Positions 35,929 to 60,677 of a DNA stretch of 64,000 nucleotides are shown one piece after another. The position numbers were made by a program, and so were the translations under genes. Position 1 is the first letter of the stretch. Each line of letters starts with the position of its first letter. The stretch is from Methanobacteriota archaeon (lineage in GTDB: Archaea > Thermoplasmatota > Thermoplasmata > RBG-16-68-12 > JAFNFQ01). The stretch spans positions 89,373 to 153,372 of the forward strand of contig JAFNFQ010000004.1 of assembly GCA_017885655.1 (NCBI GenBank). Direction: 5' to 3'. A model generated the notes under the pieces. It did no database searches, was not told the DNA's origin, and saw only the letters and a program-made list of their open reading frames with translations.

Positions 35929-38811
35929 TTGAAACGACAGAAGGAAAGGATCGAACGTCAAGTGCGGGAGGGCTTTGCGGCCCTGGCGGAGAACGACGTG
36001 GAGGCAGCGGAGCGCCACTTCAGAATAGCCGGTCACACTCTCGGCATCGCGCTCGCCTGCTATCACGGCCGGTTTTGGGAGCGAGCGACCAGCAAGGCCC
36101 TGGCGGCACTGGCCATGGCGGGACCTGGAACCGAGGACGAGGCGGTCGCCCTCAAGGTCCTCGCGATCGCTTCCAAGCAGCCGGGAGAGAAAGAGGTCAG
36201 AGGCGCCGCGCAGCAGCGGCGGGAGGCGCTCATCAAGCGCGCGGAGGAGCGGCTGGACGGGGTCGAATGGGGGCCAGTGCATGGCCTGATGCGCGAGCTG
36301 GCGAAGAAGCAGCCCGCCATCTACGGGGCTCTCGCCTCCGTCCGCATGGGGCGGAAAATGGTGAAAGCGGGTTTCCGGACAATAGTCGACTTCGTTCTTG
36401 CGGGAGATTACCACCGGGCGGCCTGTCTGGGCGACGACCTCACGCGCATAGAGGCGACGACCTGGGGGCTCGCGGCGGAGTTCTCCCTCTGCCCGGACTG
36501 CCTGGAGGAGTGGTTCGAGCCAGCTCCGGGGGAGCCGCCAAACGTGGCGCTGAACCGCTTGAGCGCGCTGACCGGGACGATACTCTTCGAGTTCACGTGG
36601 AAGAGTCCGGAGCACGCGCTGATCCTCGGGATCTCGGCGCTTCACTTCGCCGAGTTCAGGGCCCGCCACGGGGAGGACGTCGCGAGGCTCGTCGAGCGCG
36701 CGCAGGTCTACTACGATGCGGCCGCGGCACCGCAGTCGCTCGCGCCCGAGGAGGCGGGGCGCTGGACCGCCTGCGTCGAATATCACAGGGGGCGTGTACT
36801 CGAACTGGGGAAGAACGAGGCGGCCGCGCTGGCCCTCGTTGAGAAGGTCGCCTCGGGGTCTGCCGCCCCGTGGAACGAGAGGGCGCAGGAGGTGGCCGAT
36901 AGGATCCGCCGCCGCCAGGCGTCGGAGGCGAAAAGGGCGCGCGTCGCGACCCTGCGCGGGGAATGCGAGGCTGCGAGGAAGAAAAGCGATGGCGAGGTCG
37001 AGCTCGCCGCCCTGAAAGCCCTTTCATCGGAGATTGATCTGGAGCTCGGCCAGCTCGAGAGGCTCTCGCGCCTCCGCGACGAGGATCACGATCCAGGCTG
37101 GACGGACATAGCGATAAAGGCCGCGGCGAAAGGATCGCACGACGAGAACCTGTCAAGGCGTCTCGGGGAGGAGGCTGCCGTGCGGTGGTCGGAGGGGAAA
37201 GGACGCGAAGCATTGAACCTCTTCATTCTGGCCCGCCGCATCGCTCCGCTGTCGCTCGACGTGATGTCGGCGTACGCGGCAGTGCTCGCCTCGTTCGGCC
37301 GCAATGCCGAGGCGGCGAAGGCGTACGCGGCGATCGGCCACAGGGAGCCCATGCACTTCCTCGAGAGCGCGCGCTGCTTCATGGCGGCGGGCGAGGAGAG
37401 GCGCGCGGTCGCGGTGGTGCAGGCGCTGTTCGTCGCGTCGGACGCGGTCCGCCTGTGGGAGGATGGTCTGCGCCTTGTCGAGTCCCATACCACACCGCCG
37501 GCCCTGCGCCTCCTGGCCAGACTGCTGCTGGACCGGCAACCTGAGAACGAATTCGCCCGCACCGCCCTTGCCCGTGCAGAGGCGGAGGCGTACCGCGCGG
37601 CGGTCGAGGAGCGCGAGAGAGTACGTGCAGTTGCGCGCGTGGCCGCGAAGACGGGAGACTGGCGGAAGGTGAGGGATTCCCTGCAGAGCGTGCAGGAGAA
37701 TGTGAGGGACGGCGAACTCTGGAACCTGCTCGCCCGGGCTCATGAGGCCCTCGGTGAGGGGGAGGAAGCCCTGCGGTGCTACGAGGCGATGCCGCAGACG
37801 GCAGCCTCGATGGCGGGCCGCGCGCGCAGCCTCGTCCGCCTGAGGAGGTTCGAGGATGCCCGCGAGACTCTGGAGCATCTCCGTGACCGATTGGAGCCCG
37901 AGGAGGAGCCGGAGCTGGGGAGCGACCCTGATGTCAAGGGGCTGTGGGCCGAAGTGAAGGGCGACCTGCAGCTGGCGGCGCGGCTGTATGTCGATGAGGC
38001 GATGCTCCGCTCTCTGATCATGAAGGCGCGCGAGCGGGAGGATGCGCTGGCGGAGCTGGAGGCGCTCTCGGTCATCGCCGCGCGCGATGAAGCGTGCGTC
38101 GGCGAGCTCATGGACCGCGTGCGGGCCCTTGAGGGGCGCCTGCCTGTCCGCGCGAAGGCGCGCATCGTCCGAGATCGCATGCCCTCGCTCGTCCTGTGCG
38201 ACACGAACGTGCTGCTGTCGAGGGTGCTCGAGGGCGTCCCCCTGCCGGGCGATCTGAAAGCGCTCGGCAATCCGCGGGGTGTTGAGCGTTTCGAGACGCT
38301 CAGGTCGCAGAGGGGGAACGCGGTTCTCGCGGTCACGGATACCGTGGCGGGGGAGCTGAGGTCCCTGCTCAAGTACCAGATGGCGGTCCGGGAGGACGAG
38401 GAGGCGGAGAAGGCGCTCGAGGAGGTCATGCGGCGCGCGGAGCAGCTCGTGTCGGAGATGCGGGTGGAGAAGGTCGCCGGCCTCTCGCCGAGGCCGCCAC
38501 CGGAGTACTCGGAGCGCGTGAGGTCATTCTATAGGTCAATGGGCCCGCGCCTGCGTGCGATTACTCGGCGCAAGGTGAGCAGGCGGCCCGAGCGGTCGTC
38601 GGAGATCCTCGGCCGGCGGGGAGTGAGCAAGGGCAAGCCGGGGCGCGCGCCGATGCCGGAGGCGGTGGACCAACGGCTGCTCGCCGAGGCGGCGTCGCTC
38701 GTTGACGGGCCGCTGCCCGGGTTCGGCGGCGTGGGCATCCTGTCCGACGACGCTGACTTCCGGAGCTTCGCGCGGGAGATCGAGACGACATTCGGCGTGA
38801 GGATTCACTGA
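35929..38811 (+). CDS. Large alpha-helical (TPR-like) protein with a C-terminal PIN-domain nuclease
   Basis: Ala/Arg/Glu-rich helical repeats over roughly 750 aa, then a PIN core LVLCDTNVLL ... AVTDTV ... QRLLAEAA ... GILSDDADF. Many overlapping alternative-frame ORFs are by-products of high GC. Confidence 0.7.
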   Translation: MKRQKERIERQVREGFAALAENDVEAAERHFRIAGHTLGIALACYHGRFWERATSKALAALAMAGPGTEDEAVALKVLAIASKQPGEKEVRGAAQQRREALIKRAEERLDGVEWGPVHGLMRELAKKQPAIYGALASVRMGRKMVKAGFRTIVDFVLAGDYHRAACLGDDLTRIEATTWGLAAEFSLCPDCLEEWFEPAPGEPPNVALNRLSALTGTILFEFTWKSPEHALILGISALHFAEFRARHGEDVARLVERAQVYYDAAAAPQSLAPEEAGRWTACVEYHRGRVLELGKNEAAALALVEKVASGSAAPWNERAQEVADRIRRRQASEAKRARVATLRGECEAARKKSDGEVELAALKALSSEIDLELGQLERLSRLRDEDHDPGWTDIAIKAAAKGSHDENLSRRLGEEAAVRWSEGKGREALNLFILARRIAPLSLDVMSAYAAVLASFGRNAEAAKAYAAIGHREPMHFLESARCFMAAGEERRAVAVVQALFVASDAVRLWEDGLRLVESHTTPPALRLLARLLLDRQPENEFARTALARAEAEAYRAAVEERERVRAVARVAAKTGDWRKVRDSLQSVQENVRDGELWNLLARAHEALGEGEEALRCYEAMPQTAASMAGRARSLVRLRRFEDARETLEHLRDRLEPEEEPELGSDPDVKGLWAEVKGDLQLAARLYVDEAMLRSLIMKAREREDALAELEALSVIAARDEACVGELMDRVRALEGRLPVRAKARIVRDRMPSLVLCDTNVLLSRVLEGVPLPGDLKALGNPRGVERFETLRSQRGNAVLAVTDTVAGELRSLLKYQMAVREDEEAEKALEEVMRRAEQLVSEMRVEKVAGLSPRPPPEYSERVRSFYRSMGPRLRAITRRKVSRRPERSSEILGRRGVSKGKPGRAPMPEAVDQRLLAEAASLVDGPLPGFGGVGILSDDADFRSFAREIETTFGVRIH

Positions 38812-38943
38812 GAGCTGCCGGGGCGGCGCGGTCTGAGCGTCCTTCATTGTCCCTACTTCAAGGAATCAGACAAGGCATCTGCATCAAGATTCCGTCATCG
38901 CCGGAATCGCATGGTTTAACATCCGCGGGGAGTTCCCACGGAC

Positions 38944-40209
38944 ATGGCCGAGGTCTGGGTCAGCCTGCTCGTCGGCGGGACTCTGCTCCTCATCGGATAT
39001 GGCGCCTCCCTGATTTTCGACAAGTTCCGAATCCCCGACTTCATCGTGCTCATCTTCCTGGGTGTCCTCCTGGCGCAGATACCTGTCGAGCCTTTCGGAC
39101 CAGGTCTCGTGCCCTCGCTCACCCCGATACTGCCGGTCTTCACGGCCCTGACCATAGCATTCATCATGTTCGAGGGGGGCCTCTCGCTGAACCTCAAGGG
39201 CTCGGGCAGGGGGATGCCGGGGGTCCTCGCTCACGTCGCGGTCTCGGTGTTCATCACGGTCGTCCTTATCTGGTTGATCGCGACGCGCCTCCTCGGCTTC
39301 GACGGCGTCACCGCGCTTGTTCTGGCGGGGGCGTTCTGCGGTCCGTCGGCCGCCGTCATCCTCAGCTTCGCGACGCGTCTCAAGCTCGGCAAGGCGGCGG
39401 AGAGGGCGGTCGTGCTCGACGCCGTGGTCACGAACGTCATCGCGGTGATCCTGGTATTCTTCGCGATAAGGTCGGCGAGCGCCGAGCCGGCGACTTTCCT
39501 CCATCAGTATGCGCTCGAGATAGCGCTCGCGACGATCGTGGCGATTGCGGCGGGGATTCCGTGGAGGATGGCGATCAAGCGCTCGCCTTCACGCAAGTTC
39601 ATGTACATCGCGACAGTCGCCTGGGCCCTCGTCATCTATGGCATCGCCGATGGGCTCATCAACGGGAACGGCGCCGTCGCCGCATTCGTCTTCGGCCTCG
39701 TCCTCGCATACCGCAAGCCCGAGGACGCTCCGGACCCGGAGGGGAAGGGCAGCCTCCAGGAGTTCCAGTCCGAGATCACCTTCGGCATGAGGACGTTCTT
39801 CTTCATCTACCTCGGTCTCGTGGTGACGGTGGACAGCGTGACCCCGGTGGCGCTCATTGGCGCTCTCCTCCTGACGCTGGTGTTCGTCGTGTCGAGGGTG
39901 CCGAGCTCGATCGCTCTGGGCAGGCTATCCGGGTTCAGCAAGAGGGAGACGAGGGTCCTCATCGCGTCGATGGCGCGCGGGATGACCGATGTGGTGCTCA
40001 TCCTCATCGCGATCGAGAGCGGAGTCGTACCAGCGTCCTCGGTTCCTCTGCTCGTCGGGCTGGTGACCGTGACTATCCTGGTTGCGGTGGCGGTGTGCGC
40101 GGGGCTGGTCGTCTGGGCGGAGAGGAGCCCCATGGAGGAACAGGCACGTGAGAACCCACCTATTCCACCTGACGCGGATGTCCCTCTGCAATTCGACCGT
40201 CCAGCGTAG
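38944..40209 (+). CDS. Monovalent cation:proton antiporter (CPA1/NhaP-like)
   Basis: Ten to twelve predicted TM helices. The overlapping 434-aa ORF 38847-40151 in another frame is RG-rich and rejected. Confidence 0.85.
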   Translation: MAEVWVSLLVGGTLLLIGYGASLIFDKFRIPDFIVLIFLGVLLAQIPVEPFGPGLVPSLTPILPVFTALTIAFIMFEGGLSLNLKGSGRGMPGVLAHVAVSVFITVVLIWLIATRLLGFDGVTALVLAGAFCGPSAAVILSFATRLKLGKAAERAVVLDAVVTNVIAVILVFFAIRSASAEPATFLHQYALEIALATIVAIAAGIPWRMAIKRSPSRKFMYIATVAWALVIYGIADGLINGNGAVAAFVFGLVLAYRKPEDAPDPEGKGSLQEFQSEITFGMRTFFFIYLGLVVTVDSVTPVALIGALLLTLVFVVSRVPSSIALGRLSGFSKRETRVLIASMARGMTDVVLILIAIESGVVPASSVPLLVGLVTVTILVAVAVCAGLVVWAERSPMEEQARENPPIPPDADVPLQFDRPA

Positions 40210-40233: not shown

Positions 40234-40704
40234 CTACTTCAGATTTATCCTGTAGAAGCTCCAGTCAGTCTTTTCCGCGTTGTTCTTCTCGTAGAATCTC
40301 TGGGCGGACTTGTTCCAGTCGAGGACGGTGAACTCGATTCTCCCGCAACCCTCTTTCTTGGCTCTTTCCACGCAGAAGTCGAACATGGCCTGACCTATGC
40401 CCTGTCTCCGGTACTCCTCAAGCACGAAGATGTCCTCAAGGTAAAGAGTTGGCAGGGCGCGGAAGCTGGAGTAGGTGAAATAGACGATGACGTAGGCAAC
40501 GTACTTGGAGTCAAGTCTGCCCAGGTATGCCTCGTATCTAGGGTTCTTCGAGAGCGCGTCTCGCCTCAGTCTTCTCTTGGCGGCTTTGTCCGGAGGTGCG
40601 AGGTTTTCGAACTTCGCGAGTCCCTCGATGAGAAGGAGGAGGTGATGGAAGTTGTCCCCCGTGACTCGCTCGATGATCAGTCCACTGTCAGCATGCTTGC
40701 TCAT
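40234..40704 (-). CDS. GNAT-family N-acetyltransferase
   Basis: Acetyl-CoA motif RRQGIGQAMFDFCVERAKKEG. TATA-like ATATTTACG about 30 nt upstream of the ATG (leaderless arrangement). Confidence 0.85.
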   Translation of the reverse strand: MSKHADSGLIIERVTGDNFHHLLLLIEGLAKFENLAPPDKAAKRRLRRDALSKNPRYEAYLGRLDSKYVAYVIVYFTYSSFRALPTLYLEDIFVLEEYRRQGIGQAMFDFCVERAKKEGCGRIEFTVLDWNKSAQRFYEKNNAEKTDWSFYRINLK

Positions 40705-40767
40705 GGCGGCGGTAAGATGAAGCGTCGGCGTAAATATCCTTCCGCGGAACGGTTTCGGAGCGGAATC
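40624..40767. repeat. Direct repeat copy 1 (about 142 bp): promoter plus first 29 codons of the GNAT gene
   Basis: Aligns by eye with 41576-41719 at high identity, including the ATATTTACG TATA-like box and the MSKHADSGL coding start. Confidence 0.7.
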
Positions 40768-40988
40768 GATAATCTGCGCGTTTGTATCCCCGATCAGACT
40801 GGACCCGCCATCACATCATCGGAGGGAGATCCACGAGAGATATCGATATCGGCAGAACTACCAGCAATCCGGTATCTAGCTCTCCGGCGAAGAGACTGGG
40901 CATCCGCTCTTTAAGATTCCTTCATTCCAATATTAGAGCACGCAGGAGTCATGGGTTCTTCACTCCACGATGAATCGCGCGAGCGCGG

Positions 40989-41513
40989 CTATGGCGTATC
41001 CCACGCCGCAATCTGCATTATCGTTGAATCGTCCACGAGCTCAAACCTCCAGTCATGGGAACCCGACATTCCGTAGACAAAGAAAGAATCGCCAGTGCTC
41101 AACCTCCCGTCGCTGTCCTCGTCGTGGACGATTGCCTTGACTGTCAGGCCGAAGCTGAATGGGGTGTTAAATCTCAGACTTTGATAATCCGGGAGTAGGG
41201 GACTGAAATCCGCGTACATGCGCATTCGTATGTGGGAGACTTCCCCAAAGCGTTCCGTCACGCATTTCGCCTTCCAGCTAGCCGTGAGGTTGTCCGAGAG
41301 TCCACCGATGTCGATTTCGGTGAAGTACATCGGAGCCCCATCTACCCACGGACCGCAATATTCGGGGGTATGGGCGGTCAGCGTGTACCAGACAATGACA
41401 GCTGTCACCAAGAGGACGGCAATTACGAAGGAGGCAACCGCGTACAGGAATCTGCGAGATTTCGATTTCCTCTCGTTTCCATTGGCATCCTTTCGCTCGG
41501 GCTGCGCCGTCAT
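40989..41513 (-). CDS. Membrane-anchored extracytoplasmic protein (174 aa), inserted between the two GNAT-promoter repeats
   Basis: N-terminal TM anchor (FLYAVASFVIAVLLVTAVIVWY), GGAG 6 nt upstream. ATGA overlap with the truncated GNAT leader ORF. Confidence 0.55.
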   Translation of the reverse strand: MTAQPERKDANGNERKSKSRRFLYAVASFVIAVLLVTAVIVWYTLTAHTPEYCGPWVDGAPMYFTEIDIGGLSDNLTASWKAKCVTERFGEVSHIRMRMYADFSPLLPDYQSLRFNTPFSFGLTVKAIVHDEDSDGRLSTGDSFFVYGMSGSHDWRFELVDDSTIMQIAAWDTP

Positions 41514-41656
41514 CCGTCGCTCCCTGCACCGAGAGCATGCTTATTACCCTTAAAGGTTCCTGGATTCGGGAGGCTCTCGACAAGAAGGAGGAATTCCTGG
41601 AAGTTGTCTCCTTTGACTCGCTCGATGGTCAGTCCACTGTCAGCATGCTTACTCAT
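41510..41656 (-). pseudogene. Truncated duplicate of the GNAT gene 5' end (29 conserved codons + 19 novel codons), acting as a leader ORF coupled to the 40989-41513 gene
   Basis: MSKHADSGLTIERVKGDNFQEFLLLVESL matches MSKHADSGLIIERVTGDNFHHLLLLIEGL of the full gene, then diverges and stops overlapping the next ATG. Confidence 0.6.
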
Positions 41657-41719
41657 GGCGGCGGCGAGATGAAACGTGGGCGTAAATATTCTTCCGCGGA
41701 AAGCCTTCAACAGGGAATC
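41576..41719. repeat. Direct repeat copy 2 of the GNAT promoter/5' segment
   Basis: See copy 1. Copy 2 ends where the Fic gene (41718-42656) ends. Confidence 0.7.
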
Positions 41720-42656
41720 AGCGGGCTTGCGTCCCCGGCTGGACCGTTTCCGCGTACCGCGCTAGTGCATGCTTGCTTGAATACCATGTGCGGCCGATCT
41801 TGACGGCCTCGAGCACTCCCTGCCGCGCGCGCAACGAGAGGTATTCCTGAGAATACGCGCTGCCCCGGGCAAGCTGTCTCAGGGGGACGAGAGCACGTTC
41901 GGGATCCACCGCGGACAGGAACACCGCCAGCCCCTCGTCAACAGCATGCAGTACGAAGCCCGAGAGCGGTCCGTACCGGCCCCGGTCCGCCTCATCGAGA
42001 CACTTGTAGTACCGCCGCCTGTCCTCCACGCGGAGGACGACAGGCGCGTATCCTGCGCTGATGAGCACCAGGTTGGCGGCCAGCCGCGCGGTCCTCCCGT
42101 TCCCGTCGAGGAACGGATGGATCGATGCGAGGCGGTGATGCAGGCAGATGCTGCGGAGGACCGGCTCGCGGATGGCGGGAAGTCCCTTGAACAGCTGGTC
42201 GAGTCGCCGGACGATCTCGGATGGGGGCGGCGGGAGGTGCGCCGAACCGCCGATCCGGACCTGCTGCCGTCTGTACTCCCCTGGAGACTCCAGCGTCCCC
42301 TTCGTGACCATTTCGTGGAGCTTCTTGAGGGGGGCATGGTCGAACCGCAGGCCAGGACGGCCACTCTCCCATATCCAGTCGAAGGCCTCCGCGTTGTTCG
42401 TGGCCTCGAGGTGTTCGCGGACGCTCTTCCCCCCGATCGTGATCCCCTGCTCGATGATGAGGCGGGTCTCCTTGAGGCTGAGCGTGTTCCCCTCTATGGC
42501 GTTGCTGTTGTAGGTGTGGTAGAGGCGCAGCTGCTGCCGCAATCGTTCCAGGACGTCCCGGGGAAGGGGCCTGCGGGACCGCAGCTCCTTGAGATTCGAC
42601 TGGACCCGCCGCCATGTCACAGGAGGAAGGTCGGAGACGGATATCGGTATCGGCAT
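41718..42656 (-). CDS. Fic/Doc-family protein
   Basis: Canonical Fic motif HPFLDGNGRTARL. Confidence 0.85.
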   Translation of the reverse strand: MPIPISVSDLPPVTWRRVQSNLKELRSRRPLPRDVLERLRQQLRLYHTYNSNAIEGNTLSLKETRLIIEQGITIGGKSVREHLEATNNAEAFDWIWESGRPGLRFDHAPLKKLHEMVTKGTLESPGEYRRQQVRIGGSAHLPPPPSEIVRRLDQLFKGLPAIREPVLRSICLHHRLASIHPFLDGNGRTARLAANLVLISAGYAPVVLRVEDRRRYYKCLDEADRGRYGPLSGFVLHAVDEGLAVFLSAVDPERALVPLRQLARGSAYSQEYLSLRARQGVLEAVKIGRTWYSSKHALARYAETVQPGTQAR

Positions 42657-42800
42657 GTTTCCGTGTTATCCGATAGCCTTGCGGTTATATATCGGTATCG
42701 GCAAGATTGACAGTAATCCGATATCTGTCTCTCCATGAAGGTGATTCGAGACTTGACGCCCCTTGCACAAGCCCGGAAGATTCAGAGCACCCAGATGCCC

Positions 42801-43493
42801 TCATCCGGCGGTGAACACGTCCCATCTCGAGACTTTCGCGCCCGCCGACCTCAACTCCTCGATGAGGGCGGTGGCGTCCTCGTCCGAGAGCATGAGGACT
42901 GATGGGGAGACGACAGTCGCCTCGTACCTGTCCTTGAGCCCCTCGTACCTGTAGATCGTCCGGCGCCCTCCGACCTCCTTCGTCGAGACGGACCCGTGGA
43001 CCTTACGCGACACCTGCACCTTCTTGCCGGGCGGGAGGCCTGTGAGGTCATAGGAGACTAGGACCATCGGCCTCAACGCGAGGTGGTCGGGCGTGAGGAC
43101 GAACTTGCCCTGGAGCACGACTCCCTCCCGGAACACGTTCCTCAGGAAGCTCGGGTCGAGGTCCCTCAGGTTCGTGGGGATCGCGTTGATGTCCCTGTGG
43201 GGCCTGAGCGCTGTCACCATGCGCGCGATCTGCCGGTTGAGCGTCTGGGGAACCCTGCGGTCGACTATCACGAGGAGGTCGATGTCGGACCTGCGGTCGA
43301 ATTCGCCGCGGGCGAGGGAGCCGAATAGCACTACCCCGCCAGCTCGGACGATTCCCTGAAGGCCGTCGAGGAACCTCTCGATGAGCCGCCGGTCGTCGTC
43401 GGGGAGCTCAGTGAAGCTCGGCTTCGATGTCCCCGAGGATCTCCTTCGCTCTCTTGGCCGACTTTCCATCTCCTTTTCCTCCGTAGTGTTCAT
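42801..43493 (-). CDS. Nucleotidyltransferase-domain protein (MNT-like N-terminus + about 110-aa C-terminal domain)
   Basis: LFGSLARGEFDRRSDIDLLV = GS...D.D minimal nucleotidyltransferase signature. Confidence 0.8.
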   Translation of the reverse strand: MNTTEEKEMESRPRERRRSSGTSKPSFTELPDDDRRLIERFLDGLQGIVRAGGVVLFGSLARGEFDRRSDIDLLVIVDRRVPQTLNRQIARMVTALRPHRDINAIPTNLRDLDPSFLRNVFREGVVLQGKFVLTPDHLALRPMVLVSYDLTGLPPGKKVQVSRKVHGSVSTKEVGGRRTIYRYEGLKDRYEATVVSPSVLMLSDEDATALIEELRSAGAKVSRWDVFTAG

Positions 43494-43571
43494 TCTGTAA
43501 CAGGTTAATGAAAGAGGCAGTTCTTGGCACTTTCTGTTAATCCGTCACAGACTGCACCTAGGGCGGAATCG

Positions 43572-43620
43572 TCATCGGAACCTGTATCCCTCCGGGAAGC
43601 ATCTCAGCAGCTTCCCCGGC
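43572..43620. repeat. Copy a of a repeated gene-3' segment (X-type end, shortest copy)
   Basis: Shares TCA.CGGAACCTGTATC..TCCGGGA.GCAT.T.AGCAGCTTCCCC with copy b. The minus-strand reading ends ...GKLLRCFPEGYRFR* versus ...GKLLKCIPDRYRFQ* in copy b. Confidence 0.55.
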
Positions 43621-43741
43621 AGCCTGCCGTCAAGCTCCTCGATGTCGCGGTCCACGGACCCAATCACGCGGATGCCATACCTCTTGAGGATCTCCCGCTT
43701 CGTCTTCAGTCATCTCACGAAGCGTGCACGATCGAGTTCAT

Positions 43742-44125
43742 TCAGATTAACAGAGCGGCTTGCTCGACCGTCCCGCCGCAGAGCTCGACCGATTCGCTGT
43801 CACTCTGCGGGCCCAATACCCCGCCTGTCGAATCCGCGGACACTTGGTGCGTCTGACAGGAGTCGACGAGCCATGTTATATCGAACGTGTACTGGATGGA
43901 CCCCAAGGGCGAGAGAGTCCCGCTGTACTTCAACTGACCGTCCAGAAACACCCGGTATTCCACATCATTCACCAGATGCGTGCTCGACACGGTCACAACG
44001 ATCTTGCCGCTCTTCGAGATCATGAAGAACCCGATTAGTGCGACAACCACCACGATAACGACCACGATGATAACACCAGTGTGCTTCTTGGGCTGTGCTT
44101 GTTGCGTCGGCTGAGGCTGCGCCAT
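43742..44125 (-). CDS. Small membrane-anchored extracytoplasmic protein (127 aa)
   Basis: N-terminal MAQPQPTQQAQPKKHTGVIIVVVIVVVVALIGFFMI TM anchor. Lies between repeat copies a and b. Confidence 0.45.
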   Translation of the reverse strand: MAQPQPTQQAQPKKHTGVIIVVVIVVVVALIGFFMISKSGKIVVTVSSTHLVNDVEYRVFLDGQLKYSGTLSPLGSIQYTFDITWLVDSCQTHQVSADSTGGVLGPQSDSESVELCGGTVEQAALLI

Positions 44126-44259
44126 CTATCTACGCTCCTTGCGCTGAAGATGTCTCGACAAGCTTTAAATGTTTCCAGACACCACACGTCACCGGGTATT
44201 CGGGGTCGCGGATCCTGCGCAATCGATGCAGGCGATCCTTGGACGCCCCTCGCCCGGAT

Positions 44260-44427
44260 TCACTGGAACCTGTATCTATCCGGGATGCATTTGAGCAGCT
44301 TCCCCTCCGAGCCCTCGTGGACGCACGTCTCCTTCAGGTCGCATCCGGGGCAGAACCGTGCGCGGATCTCGCTCTCCTCCAGCCCCAGGAGGCCCGCCTG
44401 GTCGAACAGTTCGTGGAGGAGCTTCAG
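44260..44427. repeat. Copy b of the repeated gene-3' segment (about 165 bp)
   Basis: 129 bp (44299-44427) align with 49156-49284 of gene 49088-49492 at roughly 90% identity by eye. Minus-strand reading LKLLHELFDQAGLLGLEESEIRARFCPGCDLKETCVHEGSEGKLL matches LKLLHDMFDQAGLLGLDESEIRVRFCPECDLRATCVHEGSEGRL. In frame after the 44497-44973 gene stop. Confidence 0.7.
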
Positions 44428-44496
44428 GTTCCATCCCCCGGGATCAGGCGGTCCCCGGCGGGGTCGGTGCTCCTCTCTCGGTCATCGTCCGGCAGC

Positions 44497-44973
44497 TCAC
44501 CCTTCTCCGAGAAACCTCAGGTCCTCGAGGTCCTGCTTCCTCCGTAGCTTCTTGAGGGTCTCCCTGTGGTCATCGAGCGATATCACGGGGATCCTGACGC
44601 CCTTGTATGAGAACGTCTGTCTTCTCTTCCAGAGGTCGTCGAAAGACCCCAGGACGGGACTGGTGATGATGTCCACCTCCCTGTCGTTCGTGAACGTGGT
44701 GTGCCCCATCCCCCGTATGTCCTTCACGACGTCCGTGTCGGGGACGAGCCCCAGGCTCTCCAGCGCCTTCACGGTTGCGGACACGTTCTCCGGCCCCGGG
44801 TGGATCATGATGTCGACGTCGACCGTCGTGCGGGGGACGCCGTGGAGGACGCCGGCGAGGCCTCCCGCCAGGAGGTACCTGACCTTATTCCTATTCAGCG
44901 TCCTCATTATCACCTGAAGCTCTAGCAATCCTCGCCTCCCTTCTGAACCCCTCAACCTCCTCAGCGAGCGCAA
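44497..44973 (-). CDS. Nucleotidyltransferase-fold protein (AbiEii/DUF-type)
   Basis: RYLLAGGLAGVLHGVPRTTVDVDIMI: hG[GS] plus D.D pattern of the Pol-beta-like nucleotidyltransferase fold. Confidence 0.55.
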   Translation of the reverse strand: MRSLRRLRGSEGRRGLLELQVIMRTLNRNKVRYLLAGGLAGVLHGVPRTTVDVDIMIHPGPENVSATVKALESLGLVPDTDVVKDIRGMGHTTFTNDREVDIITSPVLGSFDDLWKRRQTFSYKGVRIPVISLDDHRETLKKLRRKQDLEDLRFLGEG

Positions 44974-45852
44974 GTCGCTCCTGAGGTGTCAGGCTCAGGA
45001 ACCACCTGCCGAGCCTCTCCCGCGCCGGGTCTTTCTCTGGCATCGGGCCTCAATCCCTCTCGTTGGTATATCTCCCTTTCGCGGCGGCCGGTCGATATGT
45101 TCGGCAGATTGCCGTCCGGACGGAAGCCGTCGCTCCGGGTTGAACCCCTGTCAGCCCCGCACTACGAGACTTTGTCTTCCAGGACCATCGCGACGATTCC
45201 GTCCCAGCATCGGCGACCAGCCCCTGGCGGGCCTTCTCCAACCACCCGCCATCGATGAGGCTGATGGACCTGGTTTTGTCCATCAGGAAGCCTCCATTAG
45301 GAGAGAATCAACAGAATCGATCAGCCGTATTGAGGCCTCGGCGACCCAGAGGATCCCGAGGCGTGTAATCGATGTGGTTGTGGGTTCCGCGATTCCGGAA
45401 CCGTGTAATTCGAAATCAAATGGGTTCATGGGTATTTAACGACATTGGACTCGGTGATCAAGGTCGTTCGTTGGTGTAGCTTGCCGATAGGTTGCTCGGC
45501 GGGATTCCGGTGATCACGAGTCGAATCATCGGGGCATGGACGTTGCGGGCGCGACATTCCCCAGCGTCTGAATCTGCTTCTGGGACGCAGCCTCAACGAG
45601 GCAATGTTCCAGGAGATGCCCGCTACGGATGAACACAGGATATTTAAGGTGGGATGAGATGTCTTTTCGAGAATCCGGGCAGAAGGTAAAAGTAGGCGCC
45701 CGGGCCATAGACGACGCATCTGGAACTGCATACGGTTTGGGGGCTAGGGGTAAGAGCGGGAACCGGACGATGGACGCCGTCCAAGAAGGACAGAGAGGCA
45801 AAGGATACGAGCTCTTGGGAGCGAATGGTTTAACGGGACGTGCTGCGGGGGT

Positions 45853-46320
45853 TTGCCTTTGAAGAAAGTAAAGCTGACGATACGAGAGAAGATCCAGGAC
45901 GCTGGTTTCAGGCTCTGCCTCATGAAGGAGGCGCAGAAGCAGTTCATCACGCGCTTCTTCGCCGAGAACCTCCAGGACAAGAAGACCGTCGAGGTCCTGG
46001 TGGGCGGCCGCCGCAAGGACGTCGATCGATACATCCAGACCGTGAAGGGAATGCGCACGGGGAATCCCAAGGGCTTCGATGTGGAAACACAGGACTATGA
46101 CGGGAACATAATGGACATCAGGGATTTCGCCGGCTATCTGACGGCGGAACAGCTGGTGAGAGGCGTGGGGGGAATGACGGGGCTTGTCTCGAGGATCGAC
46201 ACGCTCGACAAGACGCTCGTCGTTCGCCTTTCCGGGCTTGAGACCACATTGAAGGGAATCGGCCCTGACATCGCAAGAGCCATACTGGAGGGGTTCGAGC
46301 GCCTCGAGAAGCGGGGTTAG
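45853..46320 (+). CDS. Hypothetical protein (155 aa; TTG start, first ATG at Met24)
   Basis: Single long ORF in an otherwise ORF-poor stretch. The N-terminal region is loosely acylphosphatase-like (FR...A...G..N..D..VEVLV.G); not confidently assigned. Confidence 0.35.
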   Translation: MPLKKVKLTIREKIQDAGFRLCLMKEAQKQFITRFFAENLQDKKTVEVLVGGRRKDVDRYIQTVKGMRTGNPKGFDVETQDYDGNIMDIRDFAGYLTAEQLVRGVGGMTGLVSRIDTLDKTLVVRLSGLETTLKGIGPDIARAILEGFERLEKRG

Positions 46321-46562
46321 ACCCCGGTCAGAGGGCGGCGCGTCTCAGGATATCATCCAGAGATCGTGGTGGCGCGAGACCAAGCCAGCCGGCCGATTGC
46401 CAGTTTCCCCCATGGTTCTCATGGACCGTCCATGGCAGATTTTCTTCATCCTGAGTTGGAGATTGGGCCGGATTCGCCGTCCCTGCATTCGCTTTGGATT
46501 GGCACTCATCTTCCTAATATCCTTCCTGACTCGAGGGCTCTGACAGATCACTGCGCGATGCC

Positions 46563-46700
46563 CTAGGCACGTGACTTCGCACCGCCTCTGAGAATGACGG
46601 TCGCAACTCCATCCAGGCACAGCGGCGACAGCTTCCCCTCCGAGCCCTCATGGATGCACGTCTCTTTCAGGTCGCATCCGGGGCAGAACTGCACATGGAG
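46563..46700. repeat. Copy c of the repeated gene-3' segment (about 140 bp, Y-type end)
   Basis: Minus-strand reading VQFCPGCDLKETCIHEGSEGKLSPLCLDGVATVILRGGAKSRA* versus RFCPECDLRATCVHEGSEGRLSPLCLDGVATAILRANFESSI* of the full gene. Similarity continues about 25 bp past the stop codon. Confidence 0.7.
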
Positions 46701-46751
46701 CCCGACCGATTTAAATTGACGCGGTGTGCCGATGCTCGGAGACGACCGCGA

Positions 46752-47921
46752 CTAATCGAGGATTATATCGAGATAGGGCCGATAGGCGAAAACTCGATTG
46801 CGCCTGTTCCCCGTCTGTTCATTCAAAAGCGCGAGCCCCTCCAGTTCGACCGCGAGTTCGTTCGCGCTCGGGAACGACAGCCCTGTGACCCTCTGCATAT
46901 CGTTCACCGAGACCATCGGGTGCTGGTACATGAACTCGATGAGAATGAGTGCGCCTCCCGCCCTTCGTCCCATTGCATTCTGGATCAACCGCCTATGCTC
47001 CTCACGCAGCTGGATGATTCTCTTCGCTGTCTCGGTCGCCTGCCTGGACACCTCGTCGACGCCTTTCAGGAAGAACCTCAGCCAGCCCTCCCAGTCCCCC
47101 TCGTCCCTGACCGCCTGCAGCGTGTCGTAGTACGAAGACCTGTTCTGGCGGAAGTAATGTGAAAGGTAGAGCAGGGGCCGCTCGAGATAGCCCTCCGCCG
47201 TCAAGAGGAAGGTGATGAGCAGACGCCCCATCCTCCCGTTGCCGTCCAAGAACGGATGGATCGTCTCGAACTGGCTGTGCGCGAGCCCCACCTTGACCAG
47301 CGGCGGCAAGGATCTCTCTGTCAGGAGAAAGCGCTCCAGATCGTCGAGGGCCTTTCTCATCTCGGGTACAGCAGGCGGGACGAAGGCTGCATCTTCAATC
47401 CCCCTCTCCGAGGGGCCGATCCAGTTCTGCACCGACCTCAGCTCGCCAGGACTATGGCTGCTGCCCCTGCCCCTGCTGAGCAGGCGAGCATGTATCTCCT
47501 GAACGAGCGCGACAGACAGCTCTCTCCCCCTCGCGATCTGACCCAGACCGTGGTTCATCGCGTCGATGTAGTTGGACACATCGACGACATCGCGAGGGTG
47601 ACCGCGCAGGCGCGCGCCCGCCTCGTACTCGAGGAGGTCGATCAGCGATGATTGGGTGCCCTCGATCTGGCTGGACAGTACGGCCTCTTTCCTGATATAC
47701 ATGAAGACGAAGAGGTCCGGGTTCGGCAGGGTCTCCGTCGCCCCGCTGAGCCTCCCAAGGTTCCTGTCCGCTTGCGAGAGGATGCTCAGCATCGAGCTGT
47801 CGAAGTCGATCGGAGGATTGGGCGGGAGCGGTTTGGGGACATATGTGCGATAGCCTTCCGGTTGCATCGCATATTGACCTGCACGCGCGGTCGTTTTTAC
47901 CATATTTAAGCCAGCCTTCAC
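46752..47921 (-). CDS. Fic-family protein with C-terminal winged-helix region
   Basis: Fic motif HPFLDGNGRMGRLL; 389 aa with the C-terminal wHTH typical of long Fic proteins. Confidence 0.85.
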   Translation of the reverse strand: MKAGLNMVKTTARAGQYAMQPEGYRTYVPKPLPPNPPIDFDSSMLSILSQADRNLGRLSGATETLPNPDLFVFMYIRKEAVLSSQIEGTQSSLIDLLEYEAGARLRGHPRDVVDVSNYIDAMNHGLGQIARGRELSVALVQEIHARLLSRGRGSSHSPGELRSVQNWIGPSERGIEDAAFVPPAVPEMRKALDDLERFLLTERSLPPLVKVGLAHSQFETIHPFLDGNGRMGRLLITFLLTAEGYLERPLLYLSHYFRQNRSSYYDTLQAVRDEGDWEGWLRFFLKGVDEVSRQATETAKRIIQLREEHRRLIQNAMGRRAGGALILIEFMYQHPMVSVNDMQRVTGLSFPSANELAVELEGLALLNEQTGNRRNRVFAYRPYLDIILD

Positions 47922-48119: not shown

Positions 48120-48199
48120 TCACTCCGACTTCGCTCTCAGGATGACTGTGGCGATCCCGTCCAGGCACAGCGGCGACAGCTGCCCCTCCGAGCCCTCGC
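48120..48199. repeat. Copy d of the repeated gene-3' segment (shortest Y-type copy, about 80 bp)
   Basis: GTCCAGGCACAGCGGCGACAGCTGCCCCTCCGAGCCCTCG is shared with copies c and e. Minus-strand reading ...GSEGQLSPLCLDGIATVILRAKSE*. Confidence 0.6.
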
Positions 48200-48345
48200 G
48201 GAGGCGTAATTCTCCTGCGGCACTCCGGGCGGAACCGCACACGGGATTTACTCTGACGGAATTCTCCTATCCTAGGCCGATTGCGTTATGAAAGTACACA
48301 GAATCATTATGGCCGCGAATGCGTTGCCATTCGCGTGGATGAGAC

Positions 48346-48861
48346 ATGACTGCAGAGCGCACGATGCTGTTCATGGACGGATCGAATCTTTTCCACTCCA
48401 CCAAGGACTTCGACCCTGGATTGAAAATCGATCTCGTGAAACTTCGAGATTTCTTGGCGAAAGACAGGCTCCTGATACGCGCATACTACTATGGCTCGAT
48501 ACCGATTGGGAATCCGGAGAGAATCGCGAAACAGACCGCCTTTCATCACTTGCTCGAGTACAGCGGTTTCAAGACGGTGATTTTGCCGCTGCGCAGGCGA
48601 GGGGCGGAGTACGTGGAGAAAGGTGTCGACGTCTCCCTTGTTACCGACATGTTGGCGCTTGGGTTCGATCGAGCTTACGAGTGCGGCATTCTCGTGGCTG
48701 GCGATGCCGACTATGTCAGGGCGATTCAAGAGGTAGAACGCAAGGGCATCAGGATTCACGTCGCATTCTACGATCTCCCCTTATGTGCGGGCGACCTGAG
48801 ACGGGCTGCACATTCGTTCGTCTCGCTGGATAAGCATCTTGAGGAATTCAGGAAGTCGTGA
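48346..48861 (+). CDS. NYN-domain (LabA-like) protein, paralog 1
   Basis: MLFMDGSNLF ... YYYGS ... EKGVDVSLVTDML ... LVAGDADYVRAIQEV, matching the NYN/LabA core. The likely true start is the ATG at 48364. Confidence 0.8.
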   Translation: MTAERTMLFMDGSNLFHSTKDFDPGLKIDLVKLRDFLAKDRLLIRAYYYGSIPIGNPERIAKQTAFHHLLEYSGFKTVILPLRRRGAEYVEKGVDVSLVTDMLALGFDRAYECGILVAGDADYVRAIQEVERKGIRIHVAFYDLPLCAGDLRRAAHSFVSLDKHLEEFRKS

Positions 48862-49087: not shown

Positions 49088-49492
49088 CTAGATGGACGAT
49101 TCGAAGTTTGCGCGGAGTATCGCGGTCGCAACACCGTCCAGGCACAGCGGCGACAGCCTCCCCTCCGAGCCCTCGTGGACGCACGTCGCCCTCAGGTCGC
49201 ATTCGGGGCAGAACCGCACGCGGATCTCGCTCTCATCCAGCCCCAGGAGGCCCGCCTGGTCGAACATGTCGTGGAGGAGCTTCAGGTACTTGCCCTCGGC
49301 TATGCGCGGCACGTCGTACTTCGCCGCCTTCAGTCCCCCGCGCGCGGTCCAGTACTCGTAGAGGCGCCGCGCGCCCTTGGAGCTGTTGCACAAGGGGCCG
49401 ACCCGGAAGGCATTCCTCCCGCCACTAGTCAATAAATGGCGATTGCATTCCGTGCAGCTTCGCCACGAATTCTTCAGTCTTCTTAAAGTCAC
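49088..49492 (-). CDS. Hypothetical small Cys-pair protein (134 aa if GTG at 49492); the full-length gene whose 3' end recurs in copies a-d
   Basis: SCTECNRH ... FCPECDLRATCVHEG Cys pairs. 3' region 49088-49284 is the repeat unit. The GTG start overlaps the upstream RNase-III-like gene by 68 nt, so the true start may be an internal TTG/GTG/ATG. Confidence 0.5.
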   Translation of the reverse strand: MTLRRLKNSWRSCTECNRHLLTSGGRNAFRVGPLCNSSKGARRLYEYWTARGGLKAAKYDVPRIAEGKYLKLLHDMFDQAGLLGLDESEIRVRFCPECDLRATCVHEGSEGRLSPLCLDGVATAILRANFESSI

Positions 49493-49937
49493 GATCAGTA
49501 TCTAAGTAAACGGCTCCTATGAGCGCCTCTAGCGTCTCGGCCGGAATTCTCGGTTGCACATCGAGGCTCTTATCTCTCTCCGACCCTCCCAGCCGAATGA
49601 GACCTCCGACTCCTTTTTCCAGTGCGAGTTTTGCTAACGTCGGTTTCTCTTCCATCTTTCTCCTTTCCACGGTAATTTTGTCCCCTGTCTCGAAGCCGGA
49701 GTGATATAGGATATCGGTTAGTGCCGCTTTGAGCAAAGCATCGCCCAAGGTCGCGAGCGCTGTCTGATCCTCACATTTCGGTTGCTGCAACGCCCGATCC
49801 TCGACAAACTTCTGACGGGTCAATGCACGGATGAGAATATCTGTGTTTCCGAATCGATGGCCGAGAATTCCTTCCTCTTCGTTCGCTTTGATGATCTTGT
49901 CCATTGGGTCTTCGAGTTTCAAGCAATCACCTCGCAC
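49425..49937 (-). CDS. RNase III-domain-like protein (170 aa, single catalytic-domain type)
   Basis: LATLGDALLKAALTDILY and ETLEALIGAVYLD resemble the RNase III signature (ERLEFLGDA ... EALIGAIYLD). Confidence 0.55.
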   Translation of the reverse strand: MRGDCLKLEDPMDKIIKANEEEGILGHRFGNTDILIRALTRQKFVEDRALQQPKCEDQTALATLGDALLKAALTDILYHSGFETGDKITVERRKMEEKPTLAKLALEKGVGGLIRLGGSERDKSLDVQPRIPAETLEALIGAVYLDTDRDFKKTEEFVAKLHGMQSPFID

Positions 49938-50150: not shown

Positions 50151-50633
50151 TTGCGCATGGCAGGAGTTACGTGCCTGACCTTGTCGGGGGACAACTACTG
50201 GGCGGTCGTCAACAGCGTCTGGTCTCTTCTGTATGAGGGGCTTTCAGTCCCTAGCCACCTCATTCTCATAACTAACGGCCGCCACAAAGATGTCGCGAAG
50301 AGGGCTTCCGATTCGTTGCAGACACTGCTTTCCTTCTATGGGATGACCAGCGTCCCCGAAATCATCGTCGTCCCCGAATATGACCTGCGCCAGGTACACG
50401 ACAAGCTGTTTGAAATCATGCAGAAGGCCAAGTCGGAGGGAGAAGTCGCTCTCAATATCACTCCGGCTAGAAAGTCGCTTGCCACAGTCGCCATGGTCGC
50501 CGCATGGGAAACTAAGGTGAATAGAATCCATTACGTTTACCTCAGAAGTCTCAAGGACGCCGATTGTCCCTATCCCCTCATAGCAAGGGATCTCCATGAA
50601 TTGCTCGACTTGAAGGAGCTCCGCCCGAAATGA
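50151..50633 (+). CDS. CARF-like Rossmann-fold sensor domain protein (degenerate ligand-site motif)
   Basis: VTCLTLSGD ... HLILITNG ... VALNITPARKSLATVAMVAAWE ... IHYVYL parallels the Csa3-like protein in this window (VHIATVGE ... LHINITGGTNIMASAALIAG ... VYYI), but with NITPA in place of NITGG. TATA CTATATAC at 50118-50125; likely ATG at 50157. Confidence 0.45.
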   Translation: MRMAGVTCLTLSGDNYWAVVNSVWSLLYEGLSVPSHLILITNGRHKDVAKRASDSLQTLLSFYGMTSVPEIIVVPEYDLRQVHDKLFEIMQKAKSEGEVALNITPARKSLATVAMVAAWETKVNRIHYVYLRSLKDADCPYPLIARDLHELLDLKELRPK

Positions 50634-51718
50634 GCACATGGTGCGCGCCCAGCAGATTCCTGATGGCGCTGGTCAACAGGATTTTTGGATATGGACGCGG
50701 GGTAATCACAATCAGATATCCACTCTATGGCACGGAGCTCTTCTCATTCGATTCATCATTCAAAGTCAAGAGCGCCTCATCCAAGCACAAGTTTTACGAA
50801 GCGCGAAAGGCTGCAACCTCATGGAGCAAGGAGCTGAGTCACGAAGCGCCCGAGTGGAACCAAGTGATGGACTCGTTCGTATCCTCTGGGACATTGAAGC
50901 CTCAGAACCTCGCCGATTTCGCTGTATGGGCCAGGAAGACACTGGAGGATAGGAGACGTCCGGAATTGGCAGCTCGCCCATTCTTCCTGGCAATCGATAC
51001 GAATGTAGCTTACAATCGCCTGTTCACGCGGCATTTTCCAATCGATGGCCCAAGCGGCGTCGTTAGAGCTCCAGATTTCAGATTCCTGTTATGCGATGTT
51101 GTCCGTCGAGAAGTCGACGAACAGATTAAACGAAAATATCGCGGGGAACTGAACCAAATATTCACCCATCCTGAACAGGAATCGATTCTCAAGGAAATCG
51201 GAGGACGCAATGTCCTCGTGGCGCGAAGGGCCAAGCTCGCTCAGAATGAAATCGACTACCTTGACAAAACGCTCAACGCCTTGACTGTTCCTTGCACGGA
51301 GTTCCCCTCAGACAAGGAAGATCGAGATATTCTCATCGCAAAGACCTACGGAGCATTCAGCCGGGACAGAAACGTGGACATAGCGCTGCTGACGATGGAC
51401 CAGAACATGGTGGACCACGCGAAGAATGCTCAGATTATGTCCTTCTCGTTAAGGGTCCCTGGAGCTTCGGAACTGGAGAAGGTCGAACTGCACTACTCCC
51501 TGTGGCATCTGCTCCACGATCTGGCCGTTGCGCTAGGCGTGATTGACATAGAGCCCTTCGGGACGCGGGTGTACGGCGAGTGGGCCGGAAAAACCACGTC
51601 TGACTACGGCGCAGAGAGAGTGAAGATAGTTCTCGACGACAAAGCTCCAATAGCGAATGAAGTGGTCAGGGACTTCCGGATTTGCGCGAAAGTCTTGGGA
51701 GTGTCAATTAGCGGCTGA
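50630..51718 (+). CDS. PIN-domain nuclease with N- and C-terminal extensions
   Basis: ATGA overlap with the CARF-like gene. PIN core PFFLAIDTNVAYN ... DVVRREVDEQ ... LLTMDQNMVDHA. Confidence 0.65.
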   Translation: MSTWCAPSRFLMALVNRIFGYGRGVITIRYPLYGTELFSFDSSFKVKSASSKHKFYEARKAATSWSKELSHEAPEWNQVMDSFVSSGTLKPQNLADFAVWARKTLEDRRRPELAARPFFLAIDTNVAYNRLFTRHFPIDGPSGVVRAPDFRFLLCDVVRREVDEQIKRKYRGELNQIFTHPEQESILKEIGGRNVLVARRAKLAQNEIDYLDKTLNALTVPCTEFPSDKEDRDILIAKTYGAFSRDRNVDIALLTMDQNMVDHAKNAQIMSFSLRVPGASELEKVELHYSLWHLLHDLAVALGVIDIEPFGTRVYGEWAGKTTSDYGAERVKIVLDDKAPIANEVVRDFRICAKVLGVSISG

Positions 51719-60199: not shown

Positions 60200-60419
60200 T
60201 GTTTAGACGTAGTTATTTCACCAGGTCGCCGAGGAGATACCGAAAGCGTCTCCCCGCCAGGGCATGTTGGTTCCGCCGACCTGTTAAGTTGTTTCACCAC
60301 CCTTATGACTCCCGCGTATCTTAAGCTTTTTCCTGGGGCTATCTCGAAGGGGCAGTACATGATTCTCGAATAGGCATCGTTGGCGGCGATGACACGGTCC
60401 GTGATCTGTTGACTTGGTA

Positions 60420-60515: not shown

Positions 60516-60677
60516 CGTTTCGGACTTTGAAGCCTTTATGCTTCAATTCATCAAGGTGCGCCGCACACGATGTCGCGAACCGAATTGAGTACACGGTCGG
60601 AGGAATCCCTGATGTCTTTCTCCGTGATGTTCAAGCGAGATCGCATCCGCATTTCTTTCCGCGCGAACGGGTTGGAC

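Follow-up and report, generated by a model that had tools for sequence, protein, structure and literature searches.

A variable defence and toxin–antitoxin island of an uncultivated Thermoplasmata archaeon and its probable build-up behind an HNH endonuclease gene

The locus

The stretch of DNA analysed here, referred to as the window, is 64,000 nt long and comes from an uncultivated Thermoplasmata archaeon. It carries two genes for Fic proteins, Fic1 (41718-42656) and Fic2 (46752-47921), and two genes for proteins of the nucleotidyltransferase type, NTase1 (42801-43493) and NTase2 (44497-44907, with the longest open reading frame (ORF) extending to 44973), set among a series of repeated segments. 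The four ORFs are all called on the minus strand, and an original prediction had described them as recurring Fic and nucleotidyltransferase pairs alternating on one strand. Genes, coordinates and strand were borne out; the order by coordinate is Fic1, NTase1, NTase2, Fic2, and there is no alternation. The four genes are independent cargo, i.e. unrelated toxin–antitoxin (TA) or defence modules and not partners of each other, and individually they are new members of well-known TA and defence families. They lie in a variable defence and TA island, which was probably built up at the 3′ end of an HNH endonuclease gene, a conserved gene of about 195 codons.

The analysis relied on profile matches from Pfam, NCBIfam and PADLOC, on tblastn for gene fragments, and on AlphaFold models compared by Foldseek. 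Related or comparison contigs and loci are identified by L-numbers (L002, L031, L094, L102, L106 and so forth). Domain identities, motifs, folds, the conservation of partner genes, the identity of the HNH fragments, the mosaic junctions and the differing cassette orders are direct observations, from which the biochemical activities of all four gene products are predicted.

The HNH gene and its fragments

The repeated segments, about 110-190 nt long, share one reading frame, which corresponds to the C-terminal part of an HNH endonuclease of about 195 aa (PF01844 and PF14279). They are not generic 3′ segments but nested C-terminal fragments of a single gene. This identity came from a large protein search alone, in which the family comprises 422 homologs of about 195 aa in archaeal metagenomes; Pfam and NCBIfam assign the repeat ORF to no family. 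An origin as tRNA or non-coding RNA fragments was ruled out by Rfam and tRNA scans of the window, which gave only a tRNA-Ala at 26679-26751.

Four such fragments, all on the minus strand, were found in the window by tblastn, and the N-terminal part of the protein is absent from it. The longest, r49 (49100-49417), covers residues 91-196 with 85% identity to P0001; the first 90 residues are missing, and with them the beginning of the HNH motif. Fragment r48 (48123-48266; about residues 152-196) forms the end of the NYN cassette described below, its left part decayed and its core intact. Directly downstream of Fic2 lies r46 (46575-46700; residues 155-196), which is a scar and not a gene, as its equivalent in L094 is interrupted by a stop codon. 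Fragment r44 (44296-44427; residues 135-178) has no start codon, is 86% identical to P0001 and breaks off right after the recombination core discussed below. The original prediction had the flagged genes separated by the repeats, but only two of the four fragments are inside the interval of these genes and none is between Fic1 and NTase1.

Outside the island the HNH gene looks quite different. A survey of 80 genome loci from Thermoplasmata, Bathyarchaeia, Nitrososphaeria, Methanomethylicia, Asgard and other groups found it intact and single-copy in 78 other archaeal loci, while multiple fragments occurred only in the window's own lineage (L002, L031). In Bathyarchaeia (L015, L024 and others) the gene is convergent with an aIF5B-like GTPase gene at a median gap of about 13 nt, and in 12-20 loci it lies a few kb from the Topo VI subunit genes. 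The HNH gene is therefore chromosomal and not mobile, and its neighbourhood in Bathyarchaeia suggests a conserved housekeeping role for this uncharacterised protein. A viral origin was ruled out, as a search of viral contigs gave two distant matches of 27-33% identity.

Two further observations concern this gene. In L031 (7060-10378), which belongs to the closest metagenome-assembled genome (MAG), HNH is split between residues 65 and 71 by a 2.7-kb insertion that carries, on the opposite strand, a gene for a 780-aa Kelch/FG-GAP protein. In the window an RNase III-like gene (49425-49937, minus strand) abuts the HNH fragment truncated at its 5′ end (from residue 91), the two ORFs overlapping by 68 nt in different frames; likewise in L114 (249-848) an RNase III-like gene abuts a 5′-truncated HNH copy (from residue 63), and the two RNase III-like proteins are only 44% identical.

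The Fic proteins and a duplicated Fic–GNAT unit

Both Fic proteins combine a Fic domain and the catalytic motif HxFx(D/E)GNGRxxR, which reads HPFLDGNGRTAR at residue 180 of Fic1 and HPFLDGNGRMGR at residue 222 of Fic2, with a motif of the form (S/T)xxxE(G/N) N-terminal to the Fic core in the same polypeptide, the mark of the self-inhibited class II. They are 30% identical to each other. Fic1 (312 aa; Pfam Fic, PF02661, 1.3e-19) is a FICD-like Fic AMP-transferase by its best PDB match, human FICD (111 bits over residues 18-251), in which TVAIEGNT is the counterpart of its inhibitory motif SNAIEG at residue 51 in the alignment; the PADLOC models PDC-S04 and SoFic match in part. Fic2 (389 aa) is of the SoFic type, with Fic_N (3.6e-26), Fic (1.1e-16) and a C-terminal domain, and its inhibitory motif SSQIEG at residue 83 lies inside Fic_N. 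It matches the PADLOC SoFic model PDLC03963 with 382 bits (7e-115) over positions 5-358 of 361, and also PDB SoFic entries and 7cb8.

Since the inhibitory motif is intramolecular in both, neither Fic protein needs a separate antitoxin. The original prediction had suggested a look for small antitoxin ORFs beside the flagged genes, and no conserved small ORF of the kind that defines the class I Fic systems (VbhT/VbhA or FicT/FicA type) flanks Fic1 or Fic2; what flanks Fic1 is 144 nt of repeats upstream and a GNAT remnant downstream. An AS1 antitoxin has been reported downstream of Sofic in E. coli (PMC12249575). A conserved AS1-like small gene is absent downstream of Fic2, and the 43-codon ORF of the HNH fragment in this position was ruled out as a candidate because of the stop codon that breaks its L094 equivalent.

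Compared with the SoFic single-gene defence protein (PADLOC model; PDB 3EQX/3ZCN), Fic2 is alike in its match to the whole model, in Fic_N and the C-terminal domain, and in the SxxxEG inhibitory helix motif together with the HPFxDGNGRxxR catalytic loop. It differs in its archaeal host and in its score of 149 against the NCBIfam SoFic equivalog, which has a cut-off of 550, so that Fic2 is not a SoFic ortholog, and its defence role is predicted from sequence. Fic2 would thus be a SoFic-type AMP-transferase with a built-in inhibitory helix, most likely acting as a lone abortive infection (Abi) toxin. An exact-match look-up of its sequence returned no record; those for Fic1 and the neighbouring GNAT protein returned the same population alone.

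Fic1 belongs to a Fic–GNAT unit that was duplicated in tandem, after which one gene decayed in each copy. The decayed second copy (40234-40874, minus strand; repeat families D2, D4 and D5) holds an intact GNAT acetyltransferase gene at 40234-40704 (Pfam Acetyltransf_1, 6e-19) and a Fic1-like remnant of 21 codons at 40792-40854, which translates as LPISISLVDLPPMM followed by a stop, with its ATG changed to CTG and an in-frame stop codon. Conversely, a GNAT 5′-end remnant of 30 codons (41565-41656, minus strand; family D2, 83% identity) sits directly downstream of Fic1 and reads MSKHADSGLTIERVKGDNFQEFLLLVESL when compared with the GNAT N-terminus. The duplicated region, 40600-42730, also holds a gene for a 174-aa membrane protein between the copies. 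A 35-nt repeat with internal dyad symmetry (ATATCGGTATCGGCA…TAATCCGATA) is present in three copies, one overlapping the Fic1 start (42641-42675), one just upstream of Fic1 (42689-42723) and one at the Fic remnant 1.8 kb away (40840-40874). As the repeat also precedes the decayed Fic remnant, Fic1 has its own upstream control region, of which the repeat is a possible operator.

NTase1 and its lost HEPN partner

NTase1 (230 aa) is a minimal nucleotidyltransferase (MNT) with a C-terminal ferredoxin-like domain. Pfam recognises NTP_transf_2 and Polbeta at about 1e-9, and the AlphaFold model has a mean confidence (pLDDT) of 86.9. In Foldseek the top matches of its N-terminal domain are MNT/MntA antitoxins, with target-normalised TM-scores of 0.74-0.79, and AlphaFold and Foldseek together identify the C-terminal ~100 residues as ferredoxin-like. 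The GS…DID motif (G58, S59, D70, D72) is invariant in 28 homologs, giving the nucleotidyltransferase fold with GSx10-16DxD that defines the MNT group. The family comprises 45 proteins, apparently mostly from Thermoplasmata, as judged from the few that carry a source name.

In three independent contexts, a gene for a protein of 111-115 aa lies ahead of the NTase1 homolog and overlaps it, and in none of the three is a Fic gene adjacent. The products of these upstream genes share the motif RRG(R/S)HHDTH, and in the full-length ones (L085, L088, L090; ~113 aa) almost the entire sequence is covered by a Pfam HEPN match with E = 1e-3 to 4e-3, a score below the Pfam cut-off. In the window an intact adjacent HEPN toxin gene with an Rx4-6H motif is missing. 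What is left is a remnant at 43408-43530 (minus strand) that holds the last 32 codons and has lost the Rx4-6H region; tblastn with the three full-length partners matches 43411-43506 alone, corresponding to partner residues 84-115. As only these codons survive, NTase1 is an orphaned antitoxin-type gene. The toxin gene would have been cut away from a HEPN–MNT module at a cassette junction, and the module is probably inert here.

The likeness to the type VII TA system HEPN–MNT (HepT–MntA) lies in the MntA fold and GS…DxD motif of the N-terminal domain, and in the overlapping upstream HEPN-like gene with its RxxxxH-type motif in the relatives of NTase1. The differences are the extra ferredoxin-like domain of about 100 residues, a HEPN-like partner that stays below the Pfam cut-off, and the incompleteness of the module in the window.

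NTase2 and sm50

NTase2 is a nucleotidyltransferase of the DUF6036/TM1012/MenT1-like type with 136 aa from its ATG. Its matches to Pfam nucleotidyltransferase families are sub-threshold, and PF19502 or PF09970 is found in its homologs. Its AlphaFold model, for which 15 homologs were used (pLDDT 92.8), matches the putative nucleotidyltransferase TM1012 (E = 2.5e-6) and the MenT1 toxin (E = 3.3e-5) in Foldseek with a TM-score of 0.71 for both; against the MenT1 structures 8an5/8an4 the TM-score is 0.70-0.71 with probability 1.0. The signature GG…R.T.D.D is invariant in the 15 homologs, as are the residues corresponding to D31, D33, D80, R124, D127 and D130. NTase1 and NTase2 have no significant similarity to each other (E = 0.04), which upholds the earlier view that they are different proteins.

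The ATG start of NTase2 is overlapped by 17 nt by sm50 (44891-45043, minus strand), a 50-codon ORF that is a candidate antitoxin gene and is 96% identical in L094, L102 and L106. A counterpart in the same overlapping upstream position in L095 is 53% identical over 30 aa (pairwise E = 1e-10) and stands beside an NTase2 homolog of 47% identity, so the small ORF is retained even next to relatives as distant as this one. Relatives of NTase2 lie next to Fic only in the near-identical array L094; in L102 and L106 they follow NYN, and in L095 the relative sits among the TA genes HicA and HEPN/MNT.

Together, sm50 and NTase2 would form a two-gene module resembling MenA1–MenT1, with a small antitoxin followed by a predicted tRNA-modifying nucleotidyltransferase toxin. 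In M. tuberculosis, menA1 encodes 68 aa, and an antitoxin gene of this kind precedes menT in 15/21 cases (PMC10435456). NTase2 is like MenT1 in fold, and sm50 is like MenA1 in lying directly upstream (PMC10435456). In contrast, the identity of NTase2 to MenT1 is just ~18-20%, it has 136 aa as against the 184-195 residues of MenT1 chains, and it falls into DUF6036/DUF2204 and not into DUF1814; the likeness of sm50 to MenA1 is one of layout. TM1012, whose function is not known, is an equally good structural match for NTase2 as MenT1.

Catalytic motifs are thus present in all four flagged proteins. The domain assignments of Fic1, Fic2 and NTase1 were confirmed by Pfam, and that of NTase2 was resolved by structure. 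NTase2 alone has a partner gene in full, sm50, as its small adjacent ORF; the partner of NTase1 is truncated and neither Fic gene has one. This leaves one complete module (sm50–NTase2), one broken module (HEPN′–NTase1, where the prime marks a remnant) and two self-contained Fic proteins. The suggestion that the array is a collection of TA or Abi-type modules is supported by the SoFic match of Fic2, the MntA fold of NTase1 and the MenT1 fold and partner of NTase2.

Cassette orders and mosaic junctions among related arrays

Two other genes of the array are needed for comparison with related contigs. A gene for a NYN-domain nuclease (48346-48861, plus strand; Pfam NYN 4.4e-26) is 96% identical in L002, L102, L106 and L117, and an acylphosphatase-like gene (45853-46320, plus strand; Pfam Acylphosphatase 2.3e-5) is 85-87% identical in L002 and L094, where it occupies different array positions. 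Together with Fic2 and NTase2, these cassettes are shared among Thermoplasmata contigs in differing orders. In L094 the HNH gene that opens the array is intact. Directly after it comes Fic2 (96% aa identity) and then, beyond a fragment of HNH, sm50–NTase2 (92%); these are followed by the acylphosphatase-like gene, by AbiEii/AbiEi, by a NYN gene together with the native flank of HNH, and lastly by a further HNH fragment and one more AbiE-like pair. In L106, five HNH fragments lie within 5.5 kb and sm50–NTase2 comes directly after NYN, while in L002 and L117 HNH is followed by the NYN cassette as in the window. The AbiEi/AbiEii pairs and NYN nucleases of these arrays further support a TA/Abi collection. 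Across the window, L002, L094, L102 and L106, intact units of 0.9-1.7 kb recur with the same ends and different neighbours.

An alignment of 22 HNH 3′ copies reveals a core of about 42 nt, GAGGGCTCGGAGGGGAAGCTGTCGCCGCTGTGCCTGGAYGG, encoding EGSEGKLSPLCLDG, that is common to all. At the junctions, what precedes the core belongs to one neighbouring cassette, whereas the last ~12 codons and the sequence after them belong to the other. The NYN cassette has a decayed left part that occurs with three different right parts (one in the window, one in L002 and one in L102/L106); that of the Fic2 cassette occurs with two (in the window and in L094), and 15 right-hand types (A-O) were found among the 22 copies. 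Direct repeats of the target 3′ end therefore flank the units, with a common core and with left and right parts that assort independently, which places recombination in or next to the core.

Origin of the island

In the proposed mechanism, which is the most economical one, one- or two-gene cassettes, each with its own upstream region, would have been inserted serially at the HNH 3′ end and afterwards shuffled, lost or truncated. Recombination would take place inside the ~42-nt coding core, and since it falls there, every junction would become a hybrid HNH 3′ fragment. Two routes can be envisaged. A site-specific recombinase could move the cassettes in trans, or HNH copies could recombine with each other through short homologies once DNA has been taken up. 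That intact units turn up repeatedly, and in different orders, speaks more for individually mobile cassettes than for large elements that have simply decayed.

Several observations weigh against this reading. The 5′ limits of the fragments vary (residues 35, 63, 71, 91, 108, 118, 135 and about 150-163, with a cluster at 150-163), and such heterogeneity fits illegitimate truncation as well as a precise site. Illegitimate truncations must also have occurred, in agreement with the gene remnants HEPN′, NYN′, GNAT′ and Fic′ that mark decay in the array. Pfam revealed no integrase or recombinase among the ORFs that were scanned in the window, in about 20 kb each of L002 and L031, and in 17 kb of L094. 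The related arrays are all from one lineage, with ~80-97% nucleotide identity in shared segments, so that some of the shared order reflects common descent and not independent insertion. Lastly, the evidence comes entirely from metagenome assemblies, in which repeats can cause chimeric joins, and the same joins recur in independent samples.

A further step would be to regard the ~42-nt core as the recombination site of an integron-like system without a recognisable integrase, which captures, stacks and reshuffles self-expressed defence and TA cassettes of ~1-2 kb. It could be driven by a recombinase that has escaped recognition and whose gene lies elsewhere, or by the HNH nuclease, which would cut at its own gene and thereby let cassettes be copied in during repair. 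We consider this extension doubtful. Somewhat less probable still is a scenario in which a few integrative elements or proviruses with their own integrases hit the HNH 3′ end and then decayed, and in which the small cassettes were never individually mobile. Tandem integration at a 3′ end with partial target copies is the classic signature of tyrosine recombinases, and truncated genes are abundant in the array; random decay, on the other hand, poorly explains why the same 0.9-1.7 kb units persist intact in different orders, and no integrase remnant was seen among the scanned ORFs of the arrays.

It is very unlikely that a Fic protein and a nucleotidyltransferase make up a functional two-gene TA or Abi system that recurs twice, for example with the nucleotidyltransferase modifying or neutralising Fic. 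What speaks for such a system is that NTase1 is followed by Fic1 after 144 nt, with both genes on one strand, and that Fic2 and sm50–NTase2 are neighbouring cassettes in L094. The gene order is opposite in the two supposed pairs, however, and neither is an operon: the 144-nt gap between NTase1 and Fic1 holds the repeated upstream element that belongs to Fic1 itself, with the GNAT remnant on its other side, and Fic2 and NTase2 are 1.84 kb apart, separated by an HNH fragment, the opposite-strand acylphosphatase-like gene and other sequence. Even in L094 an HNH scar stands between these two. The nucleotidyltransferases moreover belong to unrelated families with their own associations, a HEPN-like gene and never Fic in all three contexts of NTase1 homologs, and NYN (L102, L106) or HicA and HEPN/MNT genes (L095) for NTase2, and both Fic proteins carry their inhibitory motif within the molecule.

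There is equally little chance that the mosaic orders are chimeras produced by metagenomic mis-joins at the HNH repeats. All data are short-read metagenome contigs with repeats of 110-300 nt that are 80-95% identical, which would favour such an artefact, but the joins of the window are reproduced in independent assemblies and samples, namely L082 and L124 (JGI 3300047185), L083 and L125 (SRR35915802) and L123 (SRR13674313), and the fragments differ enough (63-90%) for unambiguous assembly. Least credible of all is that the array represents a sedentary integron or a CALIN (cluster of attC sites lacking an integrase), with promoterless cassettes, attC sites and an IntI integrase: the array of mostly single-gene cassettes, the repeated element of ~110-190 nt, the hybrid junctions and the report of integrons in Archaea (PMC9668308) would fit, but the repeat is a fragment of a protein-coding gene and not an imperfect palindrome, an attC-like structure is ruled out by single-stranded DNA folding z-scores of -0.4 to +1.9 against shuffles and by the absence of any inverted repeat spanning the element, the cassette genes lie on both strands with their own upstream regions, and the ORFs scanned in the window, L002, L031 and L094, which were not the full set, include no IntI-like gene.

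Comparison with known island-building systems

The HNH-anchored cassette architecture is a new variation on known ways of island building. One of these is tandem accretion at 3′ ends, as with the cis-mobilisable and the integrative and conjugative elements (CIME/ICE) that accumulate at the fda 3′ end in streptococci. In tycheposon islands, tandem integration occurs at tRNA genes and partial tRNAs mark the older events (10.1101/2020.12.28.424599). The island is similar in having direct partial copies of its target between units, older units pushed outward, degenerate remnants, and defence or adaptive cargo. It differs in that the target is a protein-coding HNH gene in an archaeon, often left truncated, and in that the units are just about 1-2 kb long and carry no integrase. 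With integron arrays, including archaeal ones (PMC9668308), the island shares single-gene cassettes, hybrid sites and variable order. Here the differences are the lack of an attC hairpin and, among the scanned ORFs, of an IntI gene, the placement of genes on both strands with their own promoters, and a site that is derived from coding sequence.

Other cassettes, remnants and the genomic neighbourhood

The array between NTase1 and Fic2 holds further cargo and debris. An orphan 3′ gene fragment at 43572-43706 (minus strand; repeat family D8, no family match) ends in …GKLLRCFPEGYRFR and a stop codon. The tail has the consensus …GKLL(R/K)C(F/I)P(E/D)(G/R)YRF(R/Q) before the stop; a second copy in the window, at 44260-44305, is fused to an HNH fragment exactly after the core, and a homolog lies at the far end of the L094 array (16662-16772). 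A predicted membrane protein of 127 aa (43742-44125, minus strand) is cassette cargo without a Pfam or NCBIfam match, and the same gene is found in L082 and L123. At 45207-45565 (minus strand) lies a displaced copy of the native downstream flank of HNH, which shares 90-93% identity with what immediately follows HNH in L031 and L001, and which is also present in L094 (10475-10786). It ends in the first 26 codons of a truncated NYN gene (sm77 ORF matches), and this NYN start forms part of a chimeric ORF at 45050-45283.

The NYN cassette gene is one of three NYN paralogs within 15 kb, the others being located at 59636-60199 and 62662-63294, and the regions downstream of the first two are similar (repeat family D12). 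Two segments nearby, 60072-60350 and 60659-60926, are 97% and 90% identical to L031, respectively.

Beyond the HNH fragments, positions 50151-57901 hold a second defence-type cluster in a Mokosh-like arrangement. It comprises a Csa3/HFX_2341-like CARF gene overlapping a CARF_PIN-like gene, a PLD/DrmC-like nuclease gene, a gene for a winged helix-turn-helix protein, and an MkoA-like superfamily 1 helicase gene (PADLOC, 278 bits) whose start is overlapped by the 3′ end of a radical SAM gene. On the other side, the first 35 kb of the window carry housekeeping genes and are followed at 35929-40209, beside the island, by a segment of 64-69% G+C (about 58% around it) that encodes a 960-aa TPR-like protein and a Na+/H+ exchanger. 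The nearest genome is the MAG OBJ1_062018_150_24, and identical segments occur in JGI 3300047185 and in two SRA runs.

Implications

The idea of a new Fic–nucleotidyltransferase system can be dropped, and the flagged genes are ordinary in themselves. Two archaeal modules emerge from them, a variant of HEPN–MNT extended by a ferredoxin-like domain and a compact, predicted MenT1-like toxin with a partner of ~45-50 aa. More useful than the genes is the architecture, a defence island made up of small units that recombine where an HNH gene of housekeeping type has its 3′ end. Should the cassettes prove individually mobile, the island would be the archaeal parallel to island building at tRNA genes or to integron-like capture, and the HNH core (CAGCNNCCCCTCCGAGCCCTC) would provide a simple sequence tag for harvesting archaeal defence genes from metagenomes.

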